From: Ktedonobacteraceae bacterium
GTDB lineage: Bacteria; Chloroflexota; Ktedonobacteria; Ktedonobacterales; Ktedonobacteraceae
Direction: 5' to 3'
NCBI GenBank assembly: GCA_036501345.1
Contig: DASYAN010000358.1
Coordinates: 1-38,588, forward strand
DNA length: 38,588 nt
The translations under genes were made by a program, and so were the position numbers. The notes beneath the pieces are model-generated. The model was not told where the DNA came from and searched no databases. It saw nothing but the letters and a program-made list of their open reading frames with translations. Position 1 is the first letter of the stretch. Each line of letters opens with the position of its first letter. This document shows, piece by piece, positions 3,399 through 38,586 of the stretch.

Positions 3399-4868
3399 AT
3401 GCGCGTTTCCCTAAGTCGTTATTTAATACTGGCCAAACGTTGGGCATGGTTACTTATTGTAGGGGTAGTAATTTGTAGCGGCGCAACCTACTTAATTACA
3501 AAGTTTTTTATCCCTCCTACATATGACGCTTCTGCAAAGATCATCATTAAGGTGTCTACATCTGAGTCTCAGAATGATAATACCCTGGCTGCAATTGCCA
3601 TGCTTCCAACATTTACCCAAGTGGTCGTGGATCCTAAGGTGCTCAAACCTGTTGCCACTGCCCATAAGATGGACCTTCAACTGCTCACTCAAGCGGTTAC
3701 AGCCACACAGCAATCAAATACATTGATCCTGCAGATCGATGTTAAGGATAAGGACCCCCAACTAGCAACGCAACTGGCTAATCAAGTGGGCCAGAGCTTT
3801 CTGCAGAATTACCTAACGCCAGTCTATACTATACCGCCAAACAGCCTACCAACATATGGTCAGATAACGGGAGTCCTTCTACCAGCCGTAGCCCCTATCC
3901 TGCCACTGCAACCCAAACCAAGTTTGGATACCCTGGTTGGTGGCGCTGTCGGCCTAGGACTTGCAATAGCTATCATTGTTCTTTTTGAATGGCTCAATGA
4001 CCATCTCTCAACTCCTGATGAGGTACAGAGGCTGCTCGGAGTTGACCTACTCGCAGTACTCCCTGCACTTTCAAAACGCCAGCGTCAAAAGAAAGCAGAA
4101 GAGACACCAGAGTTGGCCGAAGGATGCCGAACTTTATGCGCGAGCCTCAACATAGCACAGATACAACGTCCTTTCAAACTAGTGATGGTCACTAGCGCGC
4201 TTGCCAGTGAGGGCAAAAGCACAATTGCTTCGAATATTGCCTCCTTTCTGGCAATGTCGGGGAAACGGGTATTGCTTGTTGATAGTGACCTGCGCCATCC
4301 CGTCCTAGATCAGCATTTCCAGCTTGAAAATCGACACGGACTATCCAATGCACTTCTCGAAATGCGGAGTGACACTGAGCCAGAACTGAATGGCCAGCCT
4401 ACTGAAATCCCATCATTACGAGTGCTCACGGCAGGTATCCTGCCATCTAATCCATCGGAGCTACTACAATCACCGTTGGCACATCAACTCTTCAACCATT
4501 TCAGAAACACGCAGCACTTTGATTATGTCATATTTGATGCTCCTCCACTCTTACCAATTGCGGATGCTCAGATCTTAGCTTCGTATATCCAGGTAACTAT
4601 TCTTGTAGCTGATGTATCCAAAACCCCGCGCAAAGCTCTTGTACGAGCAAAAGAGGTATTAAATAGGACTGGTACAAGAATCCTGGGAGTAACTCTTAAT
4701 AAGAGCGAGTGGTTTGATTTCAGTAAGACCCAAGATGACCTTAGTAACATCCAAGAGCGGCCCAGAGCAGATATTATCCAATCGCCAATTAGTGCGCCTA
4801 CTATAAACAGAGCGATAGAAGTGACCAATACAGCCGCTCTACCTTCTGCCAAGAACTCGAAGAGTTAA
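3399..4868 (+). CDS. Polysaccharide co-polymerase (Wzz-like) fused to a CpsD/CapB-type P-loop (BY-kinase-like) domain
   Basis: 489 aa. It has two TM segments flanking a periplasmic/extracellular Wzz-like region. These are followed by Walker A SALASEGKST, Walker A' VLLVDSDLRHP and Walker B DYVIFDAPPLLPIADA. Confidence 0.85.
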   Translation: MRVSLSRYLILAKRWAWLLIVGVVICSGATYLITKFFIPPTYDASAKIIIKVSTSESQNDNTLAAIAMLPTFTQVVVDPKVLKPVATAHKMDLQLLTQAVTATQQSNTLILQIDVKDKDPQLATQLANQVGQSFLQNYLTPVYTIPPNSLPTYGQITGVLLPAVAPILPLQPKPSLDTLVGGAVGLGLAIAIIVLFEWLNDHLSTPDEVQRLLGVDLLAVLPALSKRQRQKKAEETPELAEGCRTLCASLNIAQIQRPFKLVMVTSALASEGKSTIASNIASFLAMSGKRVLLVDSDLRHPVLDQHFQLENRHGLSNALLEMRSDTEPELNGQPTEIPSLRVLTAGILPSNPSELLQSPLAHQLFNHFRNTQHFDYVIFDAPPLLPIADAQILASYIQVTILVADVSKTPRKALVRAKEVLNRTGTRILGVTLNKSEWFDFSKTQDDLSNIQERPRADIIQSPISAPTINRAIEVTNTAALPSAKNSKS

Positions 4869-4898: not shown

Positions 4899-6200
4899 AT
4901 GAAGCACCAGTTATTAGAGAAAATCGCCTCGCGATCTCTCCAAATTGGGATAATAGGGCTTGGTTACGTGGGACTGCCACTCGCCATCACCTTTGCCGAG
5001 GCTGGTTTTGATGTTACTGGCATAGATGTCGATCAACAAAAAGTTGACCAAGCTAATAGTGGCGAAAGCTATATACCTGATGTCGATAGCGAGAAACTGC
5101 AACAGCTTCTCAATGGCAAAAAGTTAACGTTCACGACTGACTTTACTGTCCTAGAAAACATTGATGCTGTAAGCATTTGTGTTCCAACGCCGCTTCGCAA
5201 GACACGTGATCCCGATATCTCTTACATTATCGCAGCCACTCAACAGATCCGCGCTCATCTGCACTTGGGACAACTGATTGTTCTGGAGAGTACAACATAC
5301 CCTGGCACTACTGACGAGGCCCTATTGCCAGAACTGGAATCGACAGGACTCAAAGTAGGTACAGATTTCTTCCTAGCATTTTCGCCTGAGCGCATTGATC
5401 CTGGAAATGCCCATTTTAGCACCAAGAATACGCCTAAGGTAGTTGGTGGTATTACATCGGTATGCACAGAGCTGGCACAAGCCTATTATGGAGCTGCTAT
5501 TGAGTGTATCATTCCAGTTTCCTCTGCTCGGACAGCTGAAATGGCCAAGCTGCTAGAGAATACCTTCCGTGCCGTTAATATTGGCCTGGTCAATGAAATT
5601 GCAATCATCTGCGAAAAGCTTGGCGTTAATGTATGGGAGGTCATTGAGGCTGCCGCGACAAAGCCTTTCGGATTTATGCGCTTTCTGCCGGGTCCGGGAT
5701 TAGGTGGACACTGTATTCCCGTCGATCCACATTATCTTTCCTGGAAACTCAAGACTCTTGACTATACCGCACGTTTTATCGAGCTGGCCGCAGAAATAAA
5801 TAGCAATATGCCACACTATGTTGTAAACAAAATTAGTGAGGCACTCAATGAGCAGAGGCGTAGCCTTAATGGCGCAACGGTGCTTGTACTGGGTGTAGCC
5901 TATAAGCCCAACGTCAGTGATATACGAGAATCACCTGCCCTTGATATCATTCAGAGTTTGCAGGCACGCAAAGCAGTCGTCCTCTATAACGATGATTATG
6001 TTTCCTCACTCACAATTGGAGGTCAAGTGTTGACTAACCAACCACTGAGTAGCGGACTCTTGCAAGCTGCTGATTGTGTGGCACTTATTACTGATCATAA
6101 TTACTATGATATTCCTGTAATTGTGCACGAAGCTCGCGCAATTGTTGATACAAGGAATATGACCAAGGGTTTCAATGACAAGAAGATATTTAGACTATAA
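4899..6200 (+). CDS. Nucleotide-sugar (UDP-N-acetylhexosamine) 6-dehydrogenase, WbpA/WecC/TviB family
   Basis: 433 aa. N-terminal Rossmann IGIIGLGYVGLPLA and catalytic-Cys motif GGHCIPVDP. An AGGAGG-like SD precedes the ATG. Confidence 0.9.
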   Translation: MKHQLLEKIASRSLQIGIIGLGYVGLPLAITFAEAGFDVTGIDVDQQKVDQANSGESYIPDVDSEKLQQLLNGKKLTFTTDFTVLENIDAVSICVPTPLRKTRDPDISYIIAATQQIRAHLHLGQLIVLESTTYPGTTDEALLPELESTGLKVGTDFFLAFSPERIDPGNAHFSTKNTPKVVGGITSVCTELAQAYYGAAIECIIPVSSARTAEMAKLLENTFRAVNIGLVNEIAIICEKLGVNVWEVIEAAATKPFGFMRFLPGPGLGGHCIPVDPHYLSWKLKTLDYTARFIELAAEINSNMPHYVVNKISEALNEQRRSLNGATVLVLGVAYKPNVSDIRESPALDIIQSLQARKAVVLYNDDYVSSLTIGGQVLTNQPLSSGLLQAADCVALITDHNYYDIPVIVHEARAIVDTRNMTKGFNDKKIFRL

Positions 6201-6239: not shown

Positions 6240-9170
6240 ATGTCCCAATCTTTGAATACCGACACTAGTCCTAGGCCGATAGTAGGAACGACCAGTGCCC
6301 GATTGGTGGCTGTCAGACTCAAATCTGCCAACAAAAATATCTTTCGTGCAATGTTGAGTCTGAGTTCAGCAAACTTGCTTATACGCTTGATGGGTCTAGT
6401 CAATGCAGTAATTGTAACCGCTCGTTTCGGCCAAGGGCCGGCAATGGATGCCTATTTTGTTGCAACAACGGTGCCGATATTGCTGGCCCAGCTTCTAGGC
6501 TCTTCTGTAGAAGGTTCCTTCGTCCCTGTTTATGCGAGCATGCGTGCCAAAGGGGGAAAAGAAAAAGCATCAAGGCTCTTTAGTACTCTCTTAAACTTAC
6601 TCGTCATAGCTTCAGGGCTGCTTACTCTTGGAATGATCTTTTTTCGCGAACCATTACTCCATATATCAGCGCCAGGAACGAGTACACAGGTCTTGGCACA
6701 AACTGTGGCATTAGCTCCGCTCGTCTTTCCATTGCTAAGTGTTATGATCGTAAACAGCTATATGGAGAGTCTTCTGAACGCAGAGGGGAAGTTTGGTTGG
6801 CCAGCCTATAGCGGTCTACTGGTACCATTGACCACAGCTGCATTTGTCTTGCTGCTGGGCGGGAACGATGGAGTCTTTGCGATAGGCTTCGGTACACTGG
6901 TAGGTCAATGTGTACAGTCGTGCTTCTTCGTCATACGTGCACGGAGGGCCAAACTCAAATACCACTTCATTCTGGATTTAGGAACTCCAGAGATGAAAGA
7001 TATTGCCGTGAGAGCATGGCCTTCACTCTTCGCAGGTGTCATTGCACTGGCCAGCCCACTCGTCGATCAGATCTTCGCTTCCTATCAGACTAGCGGAACA
7101 ATTGCAGCCATTAATAACGCCCTTAAAATCACTGGTGTCCCCATAGGAGTTCTTTTCGCTGCAACAGGGCGTGCCCTTTTACCGTATTTTGCAACGCAAG
7201 CAGCAACCAACGATATGAAAGCTTTCAAGAATACCCTCCGCTTATATACCTGGGGTATAGCTATCGTTACTCTATGTACCTCGGTATTCATGATTATATT
7301 CTCCAAGCTGATTGTTAGTATTCTTTTCCAGCGCGGAGCATTCTCTGAAGCGGATGTTAATCTGGTAGCCATTACTCTATCGGGGTTTGCCATTGGCCTG
7401 TTTCCCATGGCTATCGGCTTTGTTTTTGGACAAGCATTCACGGCACTCGGAAAAACTCGCTTTCTGATGTACATAACGATTATGAGCATCTTTCTGAATG
7501 CTTCTTTTGATGCCTTTTTCGGCAGTTTCTGGCACAGCTTTGGTATCGCATTTGCCACTTCAGCTTATTATTTCTGCTCGATGACCGTCCAGATTTTCGT
7601 TCTGCGCAGGACAGTTGGAAAACTCGATCTGTTAAAACCGCCTCCAGAAGTTCTAAAAGTCGTGGGGGAAATTGGGCTAGGACCATACTATACGAAATGG
7701 GTTGCTTGGCAGGAACAACAGAGCATTTCGTTGCAAGAGTTCTATCAGCAGGTTTTGCGCTGGCTCTTTATACTGCTGATCTTTGCTGCTGGTATAGCTG
7801 GCACTATTCTCAATGCCCTTTTGACCTTGCGTATAGCCTTTGGCTCATTGGTTGTTTTTGCTTTCTTACGCTACCAATATTTTCTCTTGTTAGCCTGGTG
7901 CACCATTAACGTTTTCATCGGCTCTGCTCTGCCATTCTTTAACGGCAACAATTTGTTATCAGGCTTCACTCTTCCTACAACGCTATTACTCTTCTATTTT
8001 CCAATCAAAGTGCCATTTCAACGCATGGTGTCACTACGGTTTCTACTTATCTTTATATTATGGGTTTTCTTGAGCATCGGGTTCTCACCTATCCCTATTA
8101 GCACGTTTTTCACAAATTGGACATTTTTACTTGATTTTCTCGGAGTCAGCGTGCTAACCATAATGGTCATTACCACTCAGAAGCGGCTACTCTTCCTCAT
8201 CGATGCATTGCATCTCCCGGTAATTATTATCCTCATCTACGGGCTTTGGGGATACGTTCGACTCGATCCTAACATTGGTGTGGTTGATCCAACGACTGGA
8301 TACTACCGCATCTTCTCAATTTTTCCCGGAACTCCTCCAGGCTTAGCACTCTTTATTTCGATGATAATACCATTGAGTATCTATCGTCTATCGACACTGC
8401 GACGATGGTTTCAAAAACTTAGCCTGATCGCCATAATTCTTGTTATGTTAGTGGTCTTTGGTTTGACATTCAGTCGTGGTCCGCTAATTATCTTCCCACT
8501 CTGTGCCATCGCGATCATTCCCTTCTTGCCAGGAAGAAGGGCGAAAGCGCTTATGGTATCCTCCTATCTATTAGCAGGAGTTTTGATCATAATCGCAGCC
8601 GTTGCGCTTCAGATCGACATTTTTGCCCGCTTTGCAAATAGCGATCTTGGGACCCTCAACGGTCGTACCTATCTCTGGCAGGCCATTCTCGACCATTTTG
8701 ATCCACTACAGCTCTTAGGCTACGGAGAGAACGCATCCAGTACGTTATTGGCGAATCTGCAAGTTGGCTTCGGAGGAAAGCTCATTGCCGATGTTGCCCA
8801 TAACCTCTTCTTAGAAACTATGTATGATCATGGTGTGGTAGGAGTTGCCTTATTAATCCTAATCTTTGCCACACAAGCAGTTTCTTTACTGCGCCAATGG
8901 CTCGTAACCAGCAACAATCAACAACGCCTTTTTATTGCTTTGTCATTGTTGACATGTATCAATGTAGCAGTCCAGTGTAACCAAACCAATGACCTATTTA
9001 ACCAGCAAATTGGTATAACCTTTTTCATTGCTATGGCACTTCCATTCGCAGAGTGTTGGATGAAGGAGCAAGAAACTCCTGAGGATAGTAAAGCACTTGA
9101 CAAGGCGCAAGTACCAGAGTCAGAGACGGTCGAACAAAAAAAAGCACAGGTGCAATTAGCATATGGATGA
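6240..9170 (+). CDS. Fusion protein: MurJ/MviN-type MOP flippase domain plus Wzy_C (O-antigen polymerase/ligase-like) domain
   Basis: 976-aa uninterrupted ORF. The N-terminal half is MurJ-like (LIRLMGLVNAVIVTARFGQGPAMDAYFVATTVPILLAQLL...SFVPVY). The C-terminal half is polytopic, with FSRGPLIIFPL and AHNLFLETMYDHGVVGVALL typical of Wzy_C. Confidence 0.8.
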   Translation: MSQSLNTDTSPRPIVGTTSARLVAVRLKSANKNIFRAMLSLSSANLLIRLMGLVNAVIVTARFGQGPAMDAYFVATTVPILLAQLLGSSVEGSFVPVYASMRAKGGKEKASRLFSTLLNLLVIASGLLTLGMIFFREPLLHISAPGTSTQVLAQTVALAPLVFPLLSVMIVNSYMESLLNAEGKFGWPAYSGLLVPLTTAAFVLLLGGNDGVFAIGFGTLVGQCVQSCFFVIRARRAKLKYHFILDLGTPEMKDIAVRAWPSLFAGVIALASPLVDQIFASYQTSGTIAAINNALKITGVPIGVLFAATGRALLPYFATQAATNDMKAFKNTLRLYTWGIAIVTLCTSVFMIIFSKLIVSILFQRGAFSEADVNLVAITLSGFAIGLFPMAIGFVFGQAFTALGKTRFLMYITIMSIFLNASFDAFFGSFWHSFGIAFATSAYYFCSMTVQIFVLRRTVGKLDLLKPPPEVLKVVGEIGLGPYYTKWVAWQEQQSISLQEFYQQVLRWLFILLIFAAGIAGTILNALLTLRIAFGSLVVFAFLRYQYFLLLAWCTINVFIGSALPFFNGNNLLSGFTLPTTLLLFYFPIKVPFQRMVSLRFLLIFILWVFLSIGFSPIPISTFFTNWTFLLDFLGVSVLTIMVITTQKRLLFLIDALHLPVIIILIYGLWGYVRLDPNIGVVDPTTGYYRIFSIFPGTPPGLALFISMIIPLSIYRLSTLRRWFQKLSLIAIILVMLVVFGLTFSRGPLIIFPLCAIAIIPFLPGRRAKALMVSSYLLAGVLIIIAAVALQIDIFARFANSDLGTLNGRTYLWQAILDHFDPLQLLGYGENASSTLLANLQVGFGGKLIADVAHNLFLETMYDHGVVGVALLILIFATQAVSLLRQWLVTSNNQQRLFIALSLLTCINVAVQCNQTNDLFNQQIGITFFIAMALPFAECWMKEQETPEDSKALDKAQVPESETVEQKKAQVQLAYG

Positions 9171-13997: not shown

Positions 13998-15311
13998 ATG
14001 GTTAAATCTAACCTTTATAAATTTCGATTTCTTATAGTAATAGTAGCTGCAGTAGTAGTCATTGTGGCTATCTGGCAATTCTCATCACCGCACTCGTCTC
14101 CTAAACCAACTCCGCCAAACGTATCAACTACGCCTTCTCCGACAAAGTATAAACCTGGGAATAGCATTGTCAATAATACGGGCACATCAGACAGTATAAA
14201 TTTAATGCTCAATTTTACTCATAATGTTACTGATCCTGCTGCAATAGCTAAATATTATAGCTTTGTCTGGGGAGCTTCACTTCAGCAGGTCTCGGAGTTG
14301 CGTGCAGGCAATCCAAAGATATTGCTGAGCTACTATTTCCCATTTTACCGTGACAATGGGTCATTTGATAATCAAAATCTTGGCCTACAACAAAACCTTA
14401 CCTATTGGCGCTCTTTTCATCCAGATTGGATTCTTTATAAGTGTGATCGTTCCACACCAGCTTATTTTGCGGACGATAATGATCAGAGTGATAATAGAGT
14501 GCCGCTCGATTTTACCAATCCAGCCGTTATTGACTGGCAGTTACAAACATATGCAGTACCAGCCAGCCAGAACGGGTATGATGCTATTGCTGCCGATAAT
14601 GTCGATCTAGTGAATACATATGGAGCCTGTGGTGTCTATCATAATGGACAATGGGTACAATTGTTTAGTGGCAAACAGGATGATCCCAAATGGCGTAATG
14701 CTGTCTTGAACTGGTTAACACAGATGCAGAGTGCATTGCACCAATTGTCCCACCCTCTGTACCTTATTCCTAACCTTGCTCTTGGTTCAGTCTCGCCAAG
14801 CGACCCTTTTACACAACAAATAGTTAGCCATGTTGATGGCATCTCGGATGAATCGGGTTTCACTCACTATGGTGATGGTAATATAACAGATACGGATTTG
14901 CTACAAAAATTTCAATTCATTGAAAATGTGCAACAGCAACATAAACCCTATTTCATTATTGACGAAGTTTCTAGCACGGACAATGCCGAAATACAATGGA
15001 GCCTCGGTACATATTTGATGTGTAACGAAGGTAGTGCCACCCTATTTATTTCTCTTCCCCAGGACTATGGCAGCGACGCACGCTACCCACAGTATAACAT
15101 TCCAATTGGCAATCCTACTGATGAAATGTATGAGGCACAAAATGTCTACTGGCGCGACTATACCGGCGGGCTAGTTGCTGTTAACCCAAGTAGTGAAAAC
15201 GCATATACAGTCACGACGTCATCTAGCCACTACCTTGATACCAGTGGAAATGCTGTCAGTCGGACATTTAACCTACCACCACATTCAGCAATGATCCTAT
15301 TGCATGCATGA
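13998..15311 (+). CDS. Membrane-anchored/secreted GH114-like glycoside hydrolase (endo-alpha-1,4-polygalactosaminidase-like TIM barrel), tentative
   Basis: The ORF track lists 13977-15311. I prefer the ATG at 13998 because AGGAG lies 9 nt upstream. The protein has an N-terminal TM helix and a Pro/Ser/Thr linker. The segment PLDFTNPAVIDWQLQ...NGYDAIAADNVDLVNTYG resembles the GH114 GFDGVxxDNxDxY region. Confidence 0.5.
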   Translation: MVKSNLYKFRFLIVIVAAVVVIVAIWQFSSPHSSPKPTPPNVSTTPSPTKYKPGNSIVNNTGTSDSINLMLNFTHNVTDPAAIAKYYSFVWGASLQQVSELRAGNPKILLSYYFPFYRDNGSFDNQNLGLQQNLTYWRSFHPDWILYKCDRSTPAYFADDNDQSDNRVPLDFTNPAVIDWQLQTYAVPASQNGYDAIAADNVDLVNTYGACGVYHNGQWVQLFSGKQDDPKWRNAVLNWLTQMQSALHQLSHPLYLIPNLALGSVSPSDPFTQQIVSHVDGISDESGFTHYGDGNITDTDLLQKFQFIENVQQQHKPYFIIDEVSSTDNAEIQWSLGTYLMCNEGSATLFISLPQDYGSDARYPQYNIPIGNPTDEMYEAQNVYWRDYTGGLVAVNPSSENAYTVTTSSSHYLDTSGNAVSRTFNLPPHSAMILLHA

Positions 15312-15354
15312 GTGTGCATATTTTTGGATTAGGATTAACAAGGGGCGCAGGAAG

Positions 15355-15418
15355 TCCCATCCCGTTTAGGGGATTGGGATGAAAGTGCCTACCTTTTATG
15401 GGGCTTGGGCACAGGGGT
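15355..15418 (+). repeat. Dispersed repeat family, copy C (inside the left end of the tnpB element)
   Basis: It contains an imperfect hairpin at 15355-15379. An exact 20-mer, TGGGGCTTGGGCACAGGGGT (15399-15418), is also present at 32061-32080. Flanking positions align with copies at 24599-24706 and 31997-32083. Confidence 0.7.
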
Positions 15419-15427
15419 CATGTCCGC

Positions 15428-15462: not shown

Positions 15463-15615
15463 GTGAAAGACGAGATCAAACCTCTCACCATCCGGTTTCC
15501 TGAACATCTTTTGGAACAGATACGAGAGGTGGCAAAACAGAATAATCGGTCTCTCAATCGAGAAATCTTGACTGCCATACAAGAGCACATCAAAAGACAG
15601 AAGAAAGGCAGGTAA
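15463..15615 (+). CDS. Arc/CopG-type ribbon-helix-helix DNA-binding protein (50 aa)
   Basis: Below the ORF-track size cutoff. My translation from GTG is VKDEIKPLTIRFPEHLLEQIREVAKQNNRSLNREILTAIQEHIKRQKKGR*. It has a beta-strand followed by two helices, and the RSLNxEI motif is typical of Arc-like RHH proteins. It ends 6 nt before the tnpB ATG. Confidence 0.6.
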   Translation: MKDEIKPLTIRFPEHLLEQIREVAKQNNRSLNREILTAIQEHIKRQKKGR

Positions 15616-15621
15616 ACAGCC

Positions 15622-16800
15622 ATGAACACGGTGTATATCCACCGATTGCAGCCTACCCCGAAGCTGTTTGCCTGCTTGAAAGCTGCGCAGATGGAAGCCG
15701 CTCGTGTATGGAACCTCTGCTGTGAGATCCATAAGCAAGCAAGAATGGAACATGCCAAATGGCCCGGTCGCAACGATCTGCAAAAAGCAACCAAGGGTCA
15801 ATTTGCCTTGCATAGTCAATCTGTGCAGATGGTGGTCCATGCTTTCCTTGCCAACGTCGATACCACGCGTCAGCTCCGTCAAAGCCATCCTCAAATGAAA
15901 ATGAAATACCCATGGCGTGAGAAGCGTTTCTACCCGGTCAAATGGCCCGCTCAGGCTGTGAGCCGTGAGAACGAACGCGTTGTCCTGCCGATGGGCAAGG
16001 GACGCACATCCATTGTGCTGCCAATTGAACTGCCAGAAAAGAGCGGTGCTTGTAGCCTTGTTTGGAATAACGGCTTTGAGTTGCATGTCTGTATTGAACA
16101 GCCTCAAGAAAAGGAAGCACCAGGTGATGTGCATGCGACAGTAGACTTAGGGGAAATCCATCTTGCAGCAGTCTCGACAAATACCGGACAAGCCATGATC
16201 GTGACAGGTCGTGGTATCCGATCTCTCAAGCGTCAGAGGACGAAGCAACTGGGCAAAATTGGAAAGCGACAATCTAAATGCACAAAGTACTCTCGCAGAT
16301 GGAAGAAAATCCAAAGAGCCAAGAACAAGATCAAGTCGAGAGCAGAGCGCCGTATTCGTGATATGCGACACAAAGCCACACGAAAAGTGATCAATTTCTG
16401 TGTTGAGCAGAAAGTTGGTTCTCTCTTCATAGGCAATCCCCATGGTGTTCGCAGTCGAGATAGTGGAAGACACCACAACCAACGTATGGCTCTATGGGAA
16501 TATGGCAAGGATATCGACTACCTGACCCACAAATCCAAACAAGCCCACATCATGAGCTTCACTGGCTCGGAACGAGGAACAAGTAGCCAGTGTCCTGTCT
16601 GTGGGCATAAACATAAGCCTAAGAACAGAAATTGGGCATGTAAGGCCTGTGGCTTTACCGGACACCGTGATATTGTTGGATCGGTGAATATGCATACGCT
16701 TGCTTTCAGTGAGCAGGTAACCTTTCCTCGTTCCGTTACGTATCTACGCCCCTGCTTGTCTCGGCGTAGTAGTAGGGCAGACGCGCCCCTGGCATCGTGA
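15622..16800 (+). CDS. tnpB: TnpB (IS200/IS605 OrfB, RNA-guided RuvC nuclease family)
   Basis: 392 aa. RuvC-I is ATVDLGEIHLAAV. The zinc finger is CPVCGHKHKPKNRNWACKACGFTGHRD and RuvC-III is HRDIVGSVNM. The canonical RuvC-II Glu position reads FIGNP. Confidence 0.9.
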   Translation: MNTVYIHRLQPTPKLFACLKAAQMEAARVWNLCCEIHKQARMEHAKWPGRNDLQKATKGQFALHSQSVQMVVHAFLANVDTTRQLRQSHPQMKMKYPWREKRFYPVKWPAQAVSRENERVVLPMGKGRTSIVLPIELPEKSGACSLVWNNGFELHVCIEQPQEKEAPGDVHATVDLGEIHLAAVSTNTGQAMIVTGRGIRSLKRQRTKQLGKIGKRQSKCTKYSRRWKKIQRAKNKIKSRAERRIRDMRHKATRKVINFCVEQKVGSLFIGNPHGVRSRDSGRHHNQRMALWEYGKDIDYLTHKSKQAHIMSFTGSERGTSSQCPVCGHKHKPKNRNWACKACGFTGHRDIVGSVNMHTLAFSEQVTFPRSVTYLRPCLSRRSSRADAPLAS

Positions 16801-16925
16801 TCGATGCTTGTTGTCTGAGTCAGCCAACGGATCAACCACTGCTATCTGAGCAGGTTCTTTCGAGAACAGGCCATACCGTTGAAGTGACTCAGAAGCTCAT
16901 CCCCTTCTAGGGGATAGAGAGTCGT
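16640..16925 (+). ncRNA. Predicted TnpB omega RNA (reRNA) overlapping the tnpB 3' end and right end; 5' limit unknown
   Basis: In known TnpB systems the omega RNA spans the gene 3' end and the RE. Here a long-range stem joins 16814-16830 to 16876-16893 (9+6 bp). It encloses a GTTCT/AGAAC hairpin and is followed by the RE hairpin at 16899-16915. Confidence 0.45.
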
Positions 16926-16951
16926 CACCAGATTAAAATGGAGTAGAAAAA

Positions 16952-23616: not shown

Positions 23617-24601
23617 CCGTGCTCTTGTTTTGTCTGTTCAGTGCTTCCTCGGCAGCGGCCAGTACACGTACCACTGCTAACCCTGTTTCGCCATTAGCAC
23701 GTGGCTGAGCACCAGTACGAATGGAATTCACAAAATCCTCACATTCTAAGCGTAGCGGCTCAATCCAATCGATGTGGGGAATAGAAATTGCACCATAGCG
23801 ATAGGATACAACCGGGTCTGCATGAATGTCTGCCCCTTTATTATAGACCTTAATCATCTCAGAAGGGTTTGTATCGTCATAAATCACCATACGAGCATCA
23901 CCAATAACAGTCACACGACGAATTTTGCAAGGATGGAGCCAACTGACATGAATATGAGCTGTCATCTCATCAGCAAATTCTAGATCTAAGTGAGCAATAT
24001 CACAGATGTCCGGCAAGAGATGCGAATGGGCCTGCACATTGACTTGTTCGGGCGTTTTACCAAACAGATACAAAAGGATTGATACATCATGTGGAGCAAG
24101 ATCCCAGATCACATTGGTATCACTACGGAAGAGTCCTAGATTAACGCGCTCTGTTTCAACACAGTAGACCTTTCCTAGATCACCACTTTGCACTAACTTG
24201 CGCAACTCATTGACCGCAGGACTATATTCAAAGGTATGACCCACCATTAAAACAAGGTTGAGTCGCTTGGCCAGTGCTATTAGCTCTTCTGCTTCCTGCA
24301 CACTAGTTGTGAGAGGCTTTTCGACGAGAACATGCTTTCCATGCAAGAGCGCCTTTTTTGCCAGATTAAAATGTGTGCGTACAGGTGCTGCGATAACAAC
24401 ACCGTCCACATCAGATGTAAACACATCCTCAACATTTGTCGTCGTACGTATTCCTGGTTGGTGCATGGAAATTGAGGCAAGGCGTCCTTCATCTAGATCA
24501 GCCACCATAGTCACAGATGTATGAGGTATACTATCCAGATTGCGTGCAATCTTAGGGCCCCAATACCCCCAACCAATAATGCCAAAACGGATATCTTTCA
24601 T
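23594..24601 (-). CDS. Gfo/Idh/MocA family oxidoreductase (WbpB-like sugar-nucleotide dehydrogenase)
   Basis: It has an N-terminal Rossmann fold, MKDIRFGIIGWGYWG, and the EKPL motif (VLVEKPLTTS). The ATG is at 24601; the track starts at a TTG three nt upstream. Confidence 0.9.
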   Translation of the reverse strand: MKDIRFGIIGWGYWGPKIARNLDSIPHTSVTMVADLDEGRLASISMHQPGIRTTTNVEDVFTSDVDGVVIAAPVRTHFNLAKKALLHGKHVLVEKPLTTSVQEAEELIALAKRLNLVLMVGHTFEYSPAVNELRKLVQSGDLGKVYCVETERVNLGLFRSDTNVIWDLAPHDVSILLYLFGKTPEQVNVQAHSHLLPDICDIAHLDLEFADEMTAHIHVSWLHPCKIRRVTVIGDARMVIYDDTNPSEMIKVYNKGADIHADPVVSYRYGAISIPHIDWIEPLRLECEDFVNSIRTGAQPRANGETGLAVVRVLAAAEEALNRQNKSTVGTSVSI

Positions 24602-24706
24602 CAAACTGCGACCTGCAGATACCCCTTGCTTGAGCTATAGGGTACATTGCGATCAAGCGAACGGAAGCAGGTCTTCCTTTCTTGAGAGCTGTCGCATAGG
24701 GGTAAG
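24599..24706 (+). repeat. Dispersed repeat family, copy A (solo, intergenic; includes the start codon of the 23594-24601 gene)
   Basis: It aligns with 31997-32083. TCATCAAACT(G)CGACCTGnnGATACCCCT(T)GCTT is followed by an insertion of about 27 nt. GGAAGCAGGTCTTCCTTTCTTG and AGGGGTAAG come after that. Downstream are the hairpins CATAGGGGT/ACCCCTATG (24695-24728) and GGCGTT/AACGCC (24739-24759). Confidence 0.7.
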
Positions 24707-24993
24707 TTGTATCTGAACAACCCCTATGCGGGAAGACAGGCGTTTTGAACAGGAACGCCTAAACCTATTGACGAATCACCATCCACTCGGTCAGAGCCGA
24801 GGTGAAATTACTCTTCATAACTGCAGTTATATCAGATGCCAACAGTATAATATATATGCTTCAATATGCCAATAAACAGAGACTAAAGTCATAGATAAAC
24901 CTACCTATTTACTAGGAGTTAAAACCTCCTAGTTCGCGGCAGGCTCTTATGGATCAGTATGAAAGAAGACATCTACCAAATGCGAAAATATTA

Positions 24994-26115
24994 TCATGAT
25001 ACATTTGATACAGCATGCTTCTTCACTGCACTAATGACTAATTGCAACTGTTCTTCTGTAAGTTCTGGATACATTGGTAATGAAACAATACGAGATGCAA
25101 GTTCTTCTGTTATGGGAAGCATGCCACGTTTGTACCCATACTTTGCGCAAGCAGGCTGTAGATGGATAGGAGTAGGATAATGAATATTGGTCCCTATCCC
25201 TTCTTGTTCCAGAGCCCGACGGAATTGATCGCGCTCATGAACCTGCACGACATAGTAACAGAACACATGAGATGCCCATGGTTTTATGATGGGCACAGTT
25301 TTGACTATATCCTGCAACTGTTCTGTATAAGTCTGAGCATGTCTCTGACGAGCAGCATTCCAATGCTCAAGATGCGGCATCTTGATCAAAAGCACAGCAG
25401 CCTGCATTTCATCAAGGCGGGCATTGACCCCCATTACCTCATGGAGATAGCGAATACGAGAGCCATGATCGCGGATCATCCGCAGTTTCTCGTCCAATTC
25501 AGCATCATTTGTGGTACAGATACCCGCTTCCCCGAAGGCTCCCAAATTCTTGCTATAGTAAAGACTAAAGCATGCAATATCGCCAAAGCTTCCCACCCGT
25601 TGTCCCAGATACGTGGCCCCGTGAGCTTGAGATGCATCTTCGATTACACGCAGCCCATGTGCACGAGCAAAATCCATAATTGGCTTCATTTCGGTGGGAT
25701 GACCGTAGAGATGGACAGGGAGCACAGCACGTGTACGCGGAGTAAGTACATGCTCCAGTTGACGCCAATCCATAAGGTAGGTTTCGGGATCAACATCAAC
25801 AAAAACCGGAGTAGCCCCAACCATTGCAATAGCTTCAATAGTCGCAATAAAAGTATTGGATACAGTAATGACTTCATCACCAGGGCCAATCTCGCAGGCC
25901 TGCAGAGCCAATGCCAGAGCATCAGTGCCCGAGGACACTCCCACTCCAAACTTACAGTCACAATATGAGGCAAACTCATGCTCAAAGGCCTGCAACCTAG
26001 GTCCTAGAAAGAGCTGCATACCATCGAGGATCTCCTCAAAAGCCGCCATGATTTCAGGCTTTAATGCCTGGTATTGGGCTCGTAGATCAACCAAAGGTAC
26101 ATGTATAGATGGCAC
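24994..26115 (-). CDS. DegT/DnrJ/EryC1/StrS family PLP-dependent sugar aminotransferase (WbpE-like)
   Basis: 373 aa. It has the family-typical organisation, including ...DIACFSLYYSKNLGAFGEAG... (PLP-lysine region). Confidence 0.9.
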   Translation of the reverse strand: MPSIHVPLVDLRAQYQALKPEIMAAFEEILDGMQLFLGPRLQAFEHEFASYCDCKFGVGVSSGTDALALALQACEIGPGDEVITVSNTFIATIEAIAMVGATPVFVDVDPETYLMDWRQLEHVLTPRTRAVLPVHLYGHPTEMKPIMDFARAHGLRVIEDASQAHGATYLGQRVGSFGDIACFSLYYSKNLGAFGEAGICTTNDAELDEKLRMIRDHGSRIRYLHEVMGVNARLDEMQAAVLLIKMPHLEHWNAARQRHAQTYTEQLQDIVKTVPIIKPWASHVFCYYVVQVHERDQFRRALEQEGIGTNIHYPTPIHLQPACAKYGYKRGMLPITEELASRIVSLPMYPELTEEQLQLVISAVKKHAVSNVS

Positions 26116-37137: not shown

Positions 37138-38586
37138 TTACCTATTCAAAACATCAGTCAGGCGTTGAAGTTGAGATTGAAAGTGTTTCCTCACTTCATC
37201 ATCCGTCGGAGGTTTGGTATAAGTTGGCCTTAATGCAATATAGGGATATGTTTCTAAAGTGTGGTTTAGATCTGGATCTACAGTAAAATGAGCAGCTCCA
37301 GCGATAATAAAAATTTTTTTGTCAGGAAATAGTTGTGTTATATTCTTAAGCACGTTTGCTAGTGATAAGTTCCGTTGTCTAAATATAATATCATCAAGAG
37401 TACTATGAAATTCATCATTATATAAACTTGGTGCATTTTCCATCATACTCCTTGCTTTGTTGTGTAAATCCATATTATCCCATCCAATCGCTATAATACC
37501 TTTTTGTATAAATTTTGTGTATTTACAATCTTCTTGTTTTATTGGCCTATAAGCTTGAACCCCTTCAATTAAAACGATATCATGAGGACGTGCAAGGATT
37601 TCAATAATTCTTGCGTTCCAGGTGACGTGTTCTGGAAGTTTATGATTTTCTCCTAGTGCAATAATCTTTGCATCTTTTATCTTTTCTATTGGTGTATTTG
37701 CGCTAGTCAGTTTAAAACACGCTGATTCCGAGCTGTTTTTCCTACAGTAAAACTCCCAAGTATCGGGAGGATTTTTTTGCTTTACCCCCCACTCTCCAGA
37801 GGGGAATTTTCGAGAGTATTCCCCTGGTTGGATATCAGTTCGAGAGTATTCCCCTGGTTGGATATCAGGGCGATGTTTATAAACTCCTCCTACGTTGTTA
37901 CATTTACGACTGACCTCAGAGACCATCCCATCCTCGATACCTTCTACACGGCCTGTACCCACAATCTTGTTCGTCTGGGAATCTCGATAGATTATGAGAT
38001 CTCCCACTTTCTCTTGAGAAGGCTGGACTGGCGTATAATTAGCTTGGAGAATCGTTTCAGCTGCCTCTGGGTCGTGAAGATGCCCACCGCTTTCTTCCTT
38101 CCCAAAGAATCCATAGCCAAGCCGATTACACTTGCAGTTAGGAGCTTCAATCATCTGAACCATATCATCTCTGCCTGGAGTACCGACATATCCTTGCTGT
38201 TTGAGGAGGTTCCACTCAAAAACGTTACCGAGAGAAGATCCCGATGCGACACGCAGATCTAGGAGCACGATGTTTCCTGTATCCGTGAGAAATAAATGTT
38301 TTTGGAGAGGAAAAACACGATCAGTAGCGGGAAGCCCATGTGCATGTCGCAGTCTTTCTACTGGTGTTCTTGATGTGGTATCTCTTCGGCTATCTTGTAG
38401 ATCACGCGGGCGCTCAGAATATTTAGATGATTCAACTTTGTCCATAAGATTGACGTTTGGACAAAAGAGAACCAAAGGGTGGGGAAGGTTGCGAGAGGCA
38501 GTGTGATGGGGTAAAGTTCCTTGCAGAATACAAAAAAGAGGAGCTTCACCCGAATGGACCTTACCACATTGCAGGAATTTCGGCAA
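37138..38586 (-). CDS. Large hypothetical protein (5' end may lie outside window) with a C-terminal Tiki/ChaN/TraB-superfamily-like domain
   Basis: The frame is open to the window edge; the first codon in the track is TTG, and an internal Met (MDKVESSKY) is possible. The C-terminal about 200 aa carry two GxxH-type motifs, IIALGENH and IIAGAAH, as in the Tiki/ChaN/erythromycin-esterase superfamily. The middle contains a tandem peptide repeat. Confidence 0.55.
   Translation of the reverse strand: MPKFLQCGKVHSGEAPLFCILQGTLPHHTASRNLPHPLVLFCPNVNLMDKVESSKYSERPRDLQDSRRDTTSRTPVERLRHAHGLPATDRVFPLQKHLFLTDTGNIVLLDLRVASGSSLGNVFEWNLLKQQGYVGTPGRDDMVQMIEAPNCKCNRLGYGFFGKEESGGHLHDPEAAETILQANYTPVQPSQEKVGDLIIYRDSQTNKIVGTGRVEGIEDGMVSEVSRKCNNVGGVYKHRPDIQPGEYSRTDIQPGEYSRKFPSGEWGVKQKNPPDTWEFYCRKNSSESACFKLTSANTPIEKIKDAKIIALGENHKLPEHVTWNARIIEILARPHDIVLIEGVQAYRPIKQEDCKYTKFIQKGIIAIGWDNMDLHNKARSMMENAPSLYNDEFHSTLDDIIFRQRNLSLANVLKNITQLFPDKKIFIIAGAAHFTVDPDLNHTLETYPYIALRPTYTKPPTDDEVRKHFQSQLQRLTDVLNR
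37811..37870. repeat. 30-nt tandem duplication inside the 37138-38586 ORF
   Basis: CGAGAGTATTCCCCTGGTTGGATATCAG occurs at 37811-37838 and again at 37841-37868, identical at 28 of 30 positions per unit. It encodes DIQPGEYSR twice, in frame. Confidence 0.9.

Follow-up and report, generated by a model that had tools for sequence, protein, structure and literature searches.

The closest described relatives of the repeat reported here are the IS200/IS605-type elements ISGst1-5 of Geobacillus stearothermophilus, in which, according to the text of a preprint (Meers et al. 2023), several TnpB and IscB cargoes have similar sequences at the left end (LE) as well as at the right end (RE), copies without open reading frames (ORFs) occur that resemble palindrome-associated transposable elements (PATEs), and a target motif (TAM) located 5' of the LE co-varies with a DNA guide inside the element. 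Tens of copies devoid of tnpA are mobilized there in trans by one Y1 transposase, TnpA; the IscB elements are co-oriented with the upstream gene, and the iscB omega RNA, bounded by the RE, needs transcription from outside. The same text gives the logic of TAM-guide covariation for both IS608 and ISGst, and reports nuclease cutting of the empty donor joint next to the TAM for the IS605 family. For its part, the LE of IS608 from Helicobacter pylori bears, like the family described below, a subterminal imperfect hairpin with a 4-nt guide at its foot and a tetranucleotide target (TTAC) 5' of the LE, and there is no target duplication. Here we analyze a repeat of about 85 nt which is present in three copies (A, B, and C) in a 38,588-nt stretch of DNA from a Ktedonobacteraceae bacterium (the window, contig C358 of the draft genome), and which is very probably the conserved LE of a single family of IS200/IS605-type OMEGA elements, of the "peel-and-paste" kind mobilized by Y1 TnpA, that has spread through this genome and through the order. 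The family is the same kind of system as ISGst1-5 and IS608, and not a new kind.

The source genome (G000) is a 5.51-Mb draft in 594 contigs, with 47.4% G+C and 86% completeness. Copy B, used as the blastn or nhmmer query, retrieved dozens of related genome sites, and an iterative nhmmer search of the genome contigs (E ≤ 0.01) had collected 61 copies of the module in the 5.5-Mb genome at convergence. A covariance model of 88 positions and 15 base pairs (R1), built from 30 of the genome copies, yielded 74 genome matches (E ≤ 0.01), so the repeat is not restricted to the window. Within the window, R1 recognized exactly the three plus-strand copies of the original prediction: B at 31996-32085 (90.2 bits), C at 15335-15423 (68.9 bits), and A at 24598-24708 (28.0 bits). 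The exact 20-mer reported for B and C was contained in a 30-mer shared at 90% identity in a repeat search, which also aligned A and B over a 22-mer at 95% identity; copy C, which had been placed at 15355, is real but starts some 20 nt further left, at 15335. A, B, and C are members of one family, far beyond what chance would produce. At a stricter threshold (E ≤ 1e-4), a search of 41 genomes from this order with R1 gave matches in 38, the number per genome ranging from 0 to 106; this tally includes the unpublished genome G022 (7 matches), without which it becomes 37 of 40. The nearest named IsrB loci belonged to Ktedonobacter sp. SOSP1-85 and to uncultured Chloroflexia metagenome-assembled genomes, so that by these loci, too, the source organism would probably fall within the Ktedonobacteria.

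Read 5' to 3' on the top strand, the module comprises a flank tetranucleotide (the TAM), the cleavage point, a linker, a 4-nt DNA guide, a hairpin, the sequence AGGAA, a stretch complementary to the linker, and a near-invariant block, TTCCTTTYTTGGGGCTTGGGCACAGGGG. The hairpin (CCCC..GGGG) is imperfect, usually with one bulged T in the aligned copies, and would be the binding site of TnpA. To the left of the module the sequences were unrelated, whereas those to the right fell into a few classes and were conserved within each class, which places the boundary of the mobile DNA at the module's left and the interior of the element at its right.

The cargoes were studied by listing the ORFs around the 61 copies and clustering the 98 ORFs of at least 180 aa that started no more than 2.2 kb to the right of the module, one representative per cluster being searched against Pfam. 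A cluster of 10 ORFs on the module's strand contained HTH_OrfB_IS605, OrfB_IS605, and Cas12f1-like_TNB and corresponds to TnpB; on the opposite strand, a cluster of 5 ORFs with RRXRR and HNH corresponds to IscB, and a cluster of 4 comprised the window RRXRR protein (IsrB) and its paralogues. Together with the tnpB of element C and two TnpB-like singletons with a TNB domain, these clusters provided an OMEGA nuclease ORF for 22 of the 61 copies, while the nuclease-less copies are solo, mini-elements, or truncated where a contig stops. Among 16 further representatives searched, 11 were ordinary host genes and 5 had no family. In the elements, tnpB occupied the top strand, with its omega RNA at the RE, and iscB and isrB were antisense, as expected for them, with an omega RNA starting at the RE. 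Thus, one LE serves tnpB, iscB, and isrB cargoes as well as ORF-less PATE-like mini-elements, in agreement with the earlier suggestion of an IS200/IS605 end or a miniature inverted-repeat transposable element (MITE) derived from one.

At the opposite end, homology among the four isrB elements stopped after ...CAAGCCCCTG(loop)CAGGGGTTC(C/T)TGAC, that is, after TTC(C/T)TGAC, which in the window is position 33473. The IscB elements ended in ...CAAGCCCCCG(loop)CGGGGGTTCATGAC, and two TnpB families ended in ...AAGCCCC(loop)GGGGAGTCGTCAC, in ...GGGGAGTGTCAG, or in ...CCCCTTCTAGGGGATAGAGAGTCGTCAC, the last corresponding to window position 16928. An RE hairpin, AAGCCCC..GGGG, followed by TTCCTGAC or AGTCGTCAC, was found in IsrB, IscB, and two TnpB families, and TGAC or GTCAC in all families. 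The two ends are therefore asymmetric, with similar subterminal hairpins on the same strand and no inverted repeats. The IsrB omega-region profile detected 11 copies in the genome and the IscB-type profile 19 (nhmmer). Two mini-elements had both ends, one on contig C63 (LE, 316 nt of omega RNA, and RE, ∼434 nt) and one on C467 (LE and RE, ∼121 nt); like copy A, they are ORF-less derivatives comparable to PATEs and to IS200/IS605-derived MITEs. Two genome matches to Y1 TnpA (PF01797) were obtained, on C12 (96.3 bits) and C38 (93.8 bits). The former, on a short contig, is stop-free, has HVH and YYVG motifs by eye, and adjoins a tnpB fragment 91% identical to that of the window; the latter, with one in-frame TGA, is located upstream of an ORF of 397 aa, the RE of which reads GGGGAGATGTCAC. 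Mobilization of the tnpA-less copies would take place in trans, as in ISGst1-5, with these two matches as candidate transposases.

Element B, the isrB element, occupies positions 32000-33473. Its TAM, TCAT (31996-31999, plus strand), has the complement ATGA, which holds the start codon of an M24 peptidase gene (31999-31997, minus strand). The LE (32000-32085, plus) consists of the linker with the 5' arm of a helix that we call P1, the guide GATA, the bulged hairpin CCCCTGCTT..AAGCCTGGGG, the P1 3' arm CAGGTC, and the block TTCCTTTCTTGGGGCTTGGGCACAGGGGT. The isrB coding sequence (385 aa, 31999-33156, minus) matched Pfam RRXRR (E = 2.8e-37) and the IsrB structure PDB 8DMB (E = 3.3e-43), and Pfam found no HNH domain in it. 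As had been predicted, copy B forms the 3' tail of this ORF: isrB reads through the whole LE complement, and its stop codon TGA (32001-31999) overlaps the host ATG as TGATG. The 28-residue tail encoded by the LE is probably an extension, since the alignment to DtIsrB (8DMB) stops at residue 301 of 385. Upstream of isrB, a HEARO-like omega RNA scaffold (33223-33473, minus) matched the full RF02033 model (positions 1-211; E = 6.2e-6), its 38.4 bits falling short of the gathering score (83); the edge of the match, its 5' end, falls exactly on the transposon right end, at 33473. The RE (33440-33473, plus) has the hairpin CAAGCCCCTG..CATGGGG followed by TTCCTGAC, with the terminal motif at 33462-33473.

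The insertion of element B could be traced in two genomes of the same genus, G001 and G003, in which aroQ adjoins the M24 peptidase gene (pepP) with 82-85% identity and the distance from the aroQ stop codon to the ATG is 22 and 16 nt, respectively. Both sites read ...TCAT|A... and contain no element. The G001 site reads ...GAGTCAT|ACAATGTCTCACACATCTACAG..., and the window reads ...GAGTCAT|CAAAC...[element]...TTCCTGAC|CTGAATGTCTCGCGTATCTACAAC...; hence a 1474-nt element lies between TCAT| and |CTGAATGTCTC without target duplication, and, starting at 33474, the flanking sequence shows homology to the native spacer between aroQ and pepP in G001. This comparison indicates that the element inserted directly 3' of the plus-strand TCAT. 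The real target is thus TCAT on the top strand, 5' of the LE, and the minus-strand TTGAT that had been proposed as the target straddles the boundary by coincidence. The native spacer at 33474-33496 (minus), AATGTCTCGCGTATCTACA in the window and matching AATGTCTCACACATCTACA in the G001 empty site, would, by the known architecture of IscB and IsrB, act as the guide portion of the IsrB omega RNA. A restored minus-strand target would be followed by ATGA, which fits the TAM NTGA given for IsrB in the text of PMC9581776, and ATGA directly followed the LE complement in six of six IsrB relatives. In these respects (the HEARO match, the homology of IsrB to 8DMB, and the junction ATGA) element B resembles the HEARO/ISC elements (RF02033; PMC9581776), from which the module differs in being the other end, the LE distal to the omega RNA.

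Contigs from RNA libraries reached a summed depth of 45-200 at the omega-RNA region, compared with 0-4 at the isrB ORF, although metatranscriptome contigs and contigs of related copies cannot show expression of this locus. In run X3, one DNA contig has the LE and the omega region only 31 unrelated letters apart; it represents a related mini-element and not this locus. A 2009 paper on HEARO elements reportedly described their integration next to ATGA or GTGA. At 33497-33604, an unrelated repeat of about 110 nt with terminal inverted repeats ACTACTCAGGGATAC...GTATCTGAGTAGT separates the RE flank of element B from the aroQ stop codon; it is missing from the G001 and G003 empty sites, gave 45 blastn high-scoring segment pairs in the genome, reached a summed depth of up to 460 in one soil metagenome run, and looks like a MITE of another family.

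The flank tetranucleotide co-varied with the guide at the foot of the hairpin. The aligned copies of G000 comprised the TAM classes TCAT, TTAT, TTAC, TCAA/TTAA, and TCAC, and the guides GATA, GAGA, AAAA, AAGA, AAAG, GAGT, and GATG, among others. In a model-based alignment of 40 copies, 39 of them scorable, TAM position 2 was Watson-Crick complementary to guide base 1 in 33 of 39 copies and TAM position 4 to guide base 4 also in 33 of 39, whereas the T at TAM position 1 paired with the A at guide base 2 in 37 of 39, both being near-invariant in G000. None of 10,000 shuffles reached the count of either varying position, a control that overstates the significance because the copies are mutually related. 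Among the best-scoring 40 of the 106 copies of G001, the additional classes CTAT/AGGA and CTAC/AGTG followed the same rule and added pairing at position 1. Such covariation is expected of a target that is read by guide pairing, as in the IS200/IS605 type. The copies of the TTAC class carry the guide AAAG, which we take to be the target/guide pair of IS608. The module otherwise differs from the IS608 LE in its unrelated sequence and in its length of about 85 nt with P1 and a G-rich block. Compared with ISGst1-5, the family belongs to the Chloroflexota, includes an IsrB cargo, and displays at least six TAM classes (TCAT, TTAT, TTAC, TCAA/TTAA, TCAC, and CTAT/CTAC), where the preprint text mentions TTCAT for ISGst.

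P1 is a 6-bp helix in which the linker pairs with the stretch after the hairpin. In the covariance model proposed originally as a check, six of six P1 pairs had changed on both sides, and 83% of the cells were paired. The covariation score of the whole structure was 0.467, compared with 0.178 for shuffles (0 of 500 reached it) and 0.06-0.135 for slid partners, in an alignment that was fitted to R1 and therefore favors the structure. We judged P1 to be real on the basis of the slid-partner controls and of the visible arm pairs GACCTG/CAGGTC, GGCCTA/TAGGCC, GCGCC/GGCGC, and GGCAC/GTGCC. It was present in both the TnpB and the IscB/IsrB classes, and the minimum-free-energy DNA fold of copy B recovered it surrounding the hairpin. 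RNAalifold applied to hmmalign match columns recovered the hairpin alone, that alignment being out of register for P1; the P1 statistics were taken from the model-based alignment in place of those columns. Two further pairings were discarded by eye: that of the hairpin 5' arm with CAGGGG at the 3' end of the module, which fails to follow the C-type hairpin sequence, and a GGAA/TTCC mini-hairpin, which is not conserved in TnpB-class copies. The LE block GGGGCTT (e.g., 32064-32070) is complementary to the AAGCCCC (e.g., 33441-33447) that precedes the RE hairpin in IsrB, IscB, and most TnpB-type ends, so that LE and RE could possibly pair on a single strand, a pairing outside the reach of covariation since both stretches are invariant. 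No mention of a P1 helix or of a long invariant G-rich block was found in the text passages of the ISGst study, and these two, together with the systematic stop-start overlap with host genes described below, may be new features.

Several LE copies showed additional arrangements. The LE was found interrupted, at two different positions and in either orientation, by a palindrome of 19 nt, CCGTGCCACCT(N3)AGGTGG or the complement (G000 contigs C185, ∼4704-4722; C112, ∼8210-8228; C82, ∼380-398; C206, ∼2598-2617; and C373, ∼25253-25271); the palindrome core CCACCT(N1-3)AGGTGG occurs seven times in the genome, five of them within LE copies. TTGAC, the right-end terminus, precedes two LE copies (C497, ∼5214-5260, and C337, ∼1265-1285), and on C497 a complete RE hairpin, AAGCCCCTAGCCTTTAGCAAGGGGTTCTTGAC, directly abuts the LE, as either a tandem arrangement or an RE-LE junction. 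TnpB-class loci (e.g., C314, ∼890-960) have in common a stretch TGTATGACAAAGTATTCATTT..ATGAACATTTGTTTATTGACATATATGATA right after the LE, with paired ATGA(C/A)A..TTCAT palindromes and a promoter-like TTGACA-17-TATGAT, probably the promoter and operator of these elements.

Element C extends to position 16928 and agrees with the prediction that copy C is the left end of a tnpB element with a ribbon-helix-helix (RHH) gene, with its RE also located. All of its features are on the plus strand. The TAM TTAA (15335-15338), placed by alignment to R1, is followed by the LE (15339-15423), whose guide AAGT obeys the TAM-guide rule. An Arc-like RHH gene of 50 aa (15463-15615; PF03869, E = 2.6e-10, 40.4 bits) lies between the LE and tnpB (392 aa, 15622-16800; OrfB_IS605 and Cas12f1-like_TNB). 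The RE (16857-16928) has the hairpin CCCCTTCTAGGGG followed by ATAGAGAGTCGTCAC, and the homology of three paralogous tnpB elements ends at GTCGTCAC. The paralogue on C70 retains just the 3' part of the RHH gene, whose product may be a regulator of element C. The gene identities of the original prediction held: Gfo/Idh/MocA, M24 peptidase, RRXRR (IsrB), and TnpB by Pfam, the Arc-like RHH protein by PF03869, and IsrB by comparison with PDB 8DMB.

Copy A is a decayed mini-element of the IsrB type, and not a free-standing cassette. Its TAM, TCAT (24598-24601, plus), has a complement holding the start codon of the Gfo/Idh/MocA gene (24601-24599, minus), and its degenerate LE (24602-24708, plus) has an insertion of about 20 nt after the hairpin that is shared with the closest copy, on C382 of G000. 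The two extra hairpins described beside what was considered a solo copy do exist, but they belong to a remnant IsrB-type interior (24709-24827, plus) consisting of both hairpins and an omega-RNA-proximal stretch. The LE is followed by CTGAACAA, a first small hairpin, the letters AAG, and another hairpin, a layout shared by the mini-elements of C581 and C63, and positions 8-89 of the IsrB omega profile aligned to 24748-24827 (14.6 bits; E = 1.5e-6 in an 826-nt nhmmer search space). One stem of the remnant had changed on both sides, from CGTG/CACG to TCGG/CCGA, by eye. The IscB-type omega profile did not match copy A, Rfam (E ≤ 1) gave only a chance Xist_exon1 match in it, and a promoter scan around it gave 2 sites compared with 1.7 expected. 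The CAT of the Gfo/Idh/MocA start codon was kept in four relatives, in all of which the adjoining sequence differs, is unrelated to the module, and provides an ordinary AAGGA-type ribosome-binding site. At the right boundary, the orthologous locus of G003 showed a weak 37-nt local similarity (score 22). Copy A is probably immobile.

The contact between the module and host start codons was not limited to copies A and B. Sixteen of the 61 copies abutted an opposite-strand ATG that opens at least 80 codons, and all 16 were among the ∼21 copies with (T/C)CAT at the end of the flank; CAT is absent from the remaining TAM classes. In 11 of the 16 abutting ORFs, Pfam domains were found from the N terminus (M24 peptidase, Gfo/Idh/MocA, glucosamine-6-P isomerase-like, diacylglycerol kinase, aspartate-semialdehyde dehydrogenase, M16 peptidase, two protein kinases, a MiaB-like enzyme, a TPR protein, and adenylate kinase downstream of secY), and 5 had no family. 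The same ORF test applied to the genome background was positive for 2582 of 17609 TCATC sites (14.7%) and 8616 of 53603 TCAT sites (16.1%), mostly internal Met codons. In G001, 4 of 7 TCAT-class copies (among its best-scoring 40 of 106) abutted an open frame, at genes other than those of G000, and in six IsrB loci of other genomes the ATG after the LE complement started an ORF of 85-495 aa in three. The nuclease stop codon TGA overlapped the host ATG (TGATG or ATGA) in four of four isrB copies of G000, and three of six IsrB relatives showed a similar overlap, in one case as TAATG; in two relatives the LE complement ended in GGAGGTC(N2)ATG, a canonical Shine-Dalgarno sequence. No description of such an overlap of IscB or IsrB elements with host start codons was found in our literature searches, and "start codon," "ATGA," and "operon" do not occur in the text of a 2026 OMEGA review. 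A partial LE copy lies between secY and adk (G000 C157, ∼14270-14600), with the adk ATG at the boundary and ∼330 nt inserted in a ribosomal-protein-type operon.

Part of the original prediction was that the repeat supplies the leader and the ATG of the Gfo/Idh/MocA and M24 peptidase genes. It does supply the leader, but both ATGs are native, being conserved in relatives that lack the repeat. Likewise, the idea of a mobile leader or ribosome-binding-site cassette holds insofar as 16 host genes have received the LE complement as their 5' leader, which is a consequence of the complementarity between TCAT and ATGA, and any function as a leader is putative. Because the TAM of the IscB/IsrB class, TCAT, is the reverse complement of ATGA, surviving insertions often sit on a host start codon, co-oriented with the gene.

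Two explanations in which the module belongs to the host were weighed against an LE, and both appear highly improbable. A repetitive extragenic palindromic (REP)-like repeat that pre-existed as a preferred IS200/IS605 target, as the original prediction allowed, would explain why the module is found at the ends of unrelated cargoes (TnpB, IscB, and IsrB) and why many copies are cargo-free; but the orthologous loci of A and B in relatives lack the module as well as the element, the cargo is fixed in side and orientation as expected of an LE and not of REP or bacterial interspersed mosaic elements, the flank tetranucleotide co-varies with an internal guide, the RE carries a matching hairpin, and copy numbers of 0-106 among relatives are those of mobile DNA. 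A leader RNA by which the host regulates genes in cis (for instance, a riboswitch or an attenuator), read from the reverse complement of the module in the 5' UTR of diverse genes, would agree with the 16 copies directly 5' of start codons and with the co-varying helix. It is equally hard to sustain, since the module is missing from the same genes in relatives, the downstream genes (adk, asd, pepP, kinases, a TPR protein, and others) have no common function, the same module precedes tnpB in the opposite sense, it matched no Rfam family, and neither strand showed an excess of G-U pairs.

Two other proposals are compatible with an LE and concern additional functions of it. We regard as tentative, and rather less probable than its negation, that the LE complement of IscB/IsrB elements has evolved into a portable leader and translational-coupling device, an "operon adaptor" beyond a TnpA site, which would let the element sit on a host ATG without silencing the gene. 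The occupation of start codons by 16 of ∼21 (T/C)CAT-class copies against a background of 15% speaks for it, as do the termination of the ORF in TGATG, ATGA, or TAATG on the host-side ATG in all four isrB copies of this genome and half of the six relatives, the Shine-Dalgarno sequences of two relatives, and the co-orientation and dependence on outside transcription described for IscB in the text of Meers et al. (2023 preprint). On the other hand, the C-rich LE complement has few stop codons, an open frame of 28 codons being expected by our estimate with a chance of ∼0.26 per frame; the pre-ATG sequences of this genome (GGTCGAGTTTG and GGCCGACAAG) are poor Shine-Dalgarno sequences; mini-elements such as A lack an upstream ORF that could be coupled; and the pattern may be adequately explained by counterselection of disruptive insertions combined with the requirement for transcription. 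The other proposal, that P1 and the hairpin followed by TTCCTTTCTT form an intrinsic terminator on the plus-strand RNA, shielding the element from transcription across the LE, seems doubtful, more so than the coupling device. IS200 possesses a terminator that insulates it from incoming transcription, and here a conserved T-rich tract directly follows P1, with CCTT invariant in alignment A1, P1 is retained in both the TnpB and IscB/IsrB classes, and GGAAGCAGGTCTTCC with a TTTCTT stretch in copy A was scored as terminator-like; yet the tract is broken by C residues, the scan gave 1 site compared with 0.4 expected from shuffles, and the plus strand had no G-U excess.

We therefore retain the reading of the module as the LE of a mobile element family, against which several observations have to be set besides the relatedness of the copies mentioned above. 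No RE was recognized in copy A, which departs in this from the PATE or MITE arrangement of LE plus RE without a protein gene. Neither tnpA match had a recognizable LE copy beside it, in a genome that is 86% complete. No contig from four metagenome runs joined across the insertion site of element B. Single-sequence folds were no better than shuffles (z = -1.1 for B and -0.4 for C), that of copy A having a significant z only through its 11-bp perfect hairpin, and wobble counts did not discriminate between strands or molecules for P1 (10 G-T plus T-G cells compared with 8 A-C plus C-A cells).

By analogy with the known systems, TnpA would bind to the hairpin of either end while the top strand is single-stranded, cleave after the guide-selected TAM and after the RE motif, and the excised circle would re-insert 3' of a matching TAM. 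The omega RNA guides of TnpB, IscB, and IsrB, which match the RE flank, would direct cutting of the empty donor joint beside the TAM. Upon insertion of an IscB or IsrB element on a host start codon, the LE complement becomes the new leader of the host gene, and in isrB elements the nuclease ORF ends on a TGA overlapping the host ATG. As the guide of IscB and IsrB needs outside transcription, copies lying in transcribed, co-directional gene pairs would be favored, and in tight operons the sole harmless TCAT would often be the ATGA of the next gene. Most of the start-codon pattern is accounted for by this transcription constraint and by purifying selection; a further adaptation, which we consider possible but unlikely, is suggested by the stop-start overlap and by the GGAGG that closes the LE complement of two relatives.

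Two other features of the window touch none of these elements. At 27405-27448, a perfect palindrome of 22+22 nt without a spacer (TAGAATGGTTTTTTTCTTTCTA/TAGAAAGAAAAAAACCATTCTA) may be a bidirectional terminator, and at 37809-37868 there is an exact 30-nt tandem duplication within a long minus-strand ORF.

Knowing what the repeat is makes it possible to annotate cleanly the three elements of the window, and some 60 across the genome, with their boundaries, TAMs, and omega-RNA guides. The family also offers a natural series of TAM/guide pairs on a single LE scaffold (TCAT/GATA, TTAT/AAAA, TTAC/AAAG, TCAA/GAGT, TCAC/GATG, and CTAT/AGGA), useful for the study of target choice by TnpA and as a basis on which to predict the TAMs that the associated nucleases (TnpB, IscB, and IsrB) use. 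If the operon adaptor were true, the TAM ATGA, which holds a stop and a start codon, would let the element land on a host start codon inside a transcribed operon; transcription of isrB, of the omega RNA, and of the guide derived from the flank would start at the host promoter upstream; and the reading frame of the nuclease would run across the LE to a stop on the host ATG (TGATG or ATGA), with the host gene still expressed by translational coupling. Such an insertion would be near-neutral and hard to lose, and the LE would have, in P1 and the invariant G-rich block, additional functional parts that are as yet undescribed. The placement on start codons with a stop-start overlap is thus a testable hint as to how these elements persist in operons, and extends the published orientation bias.

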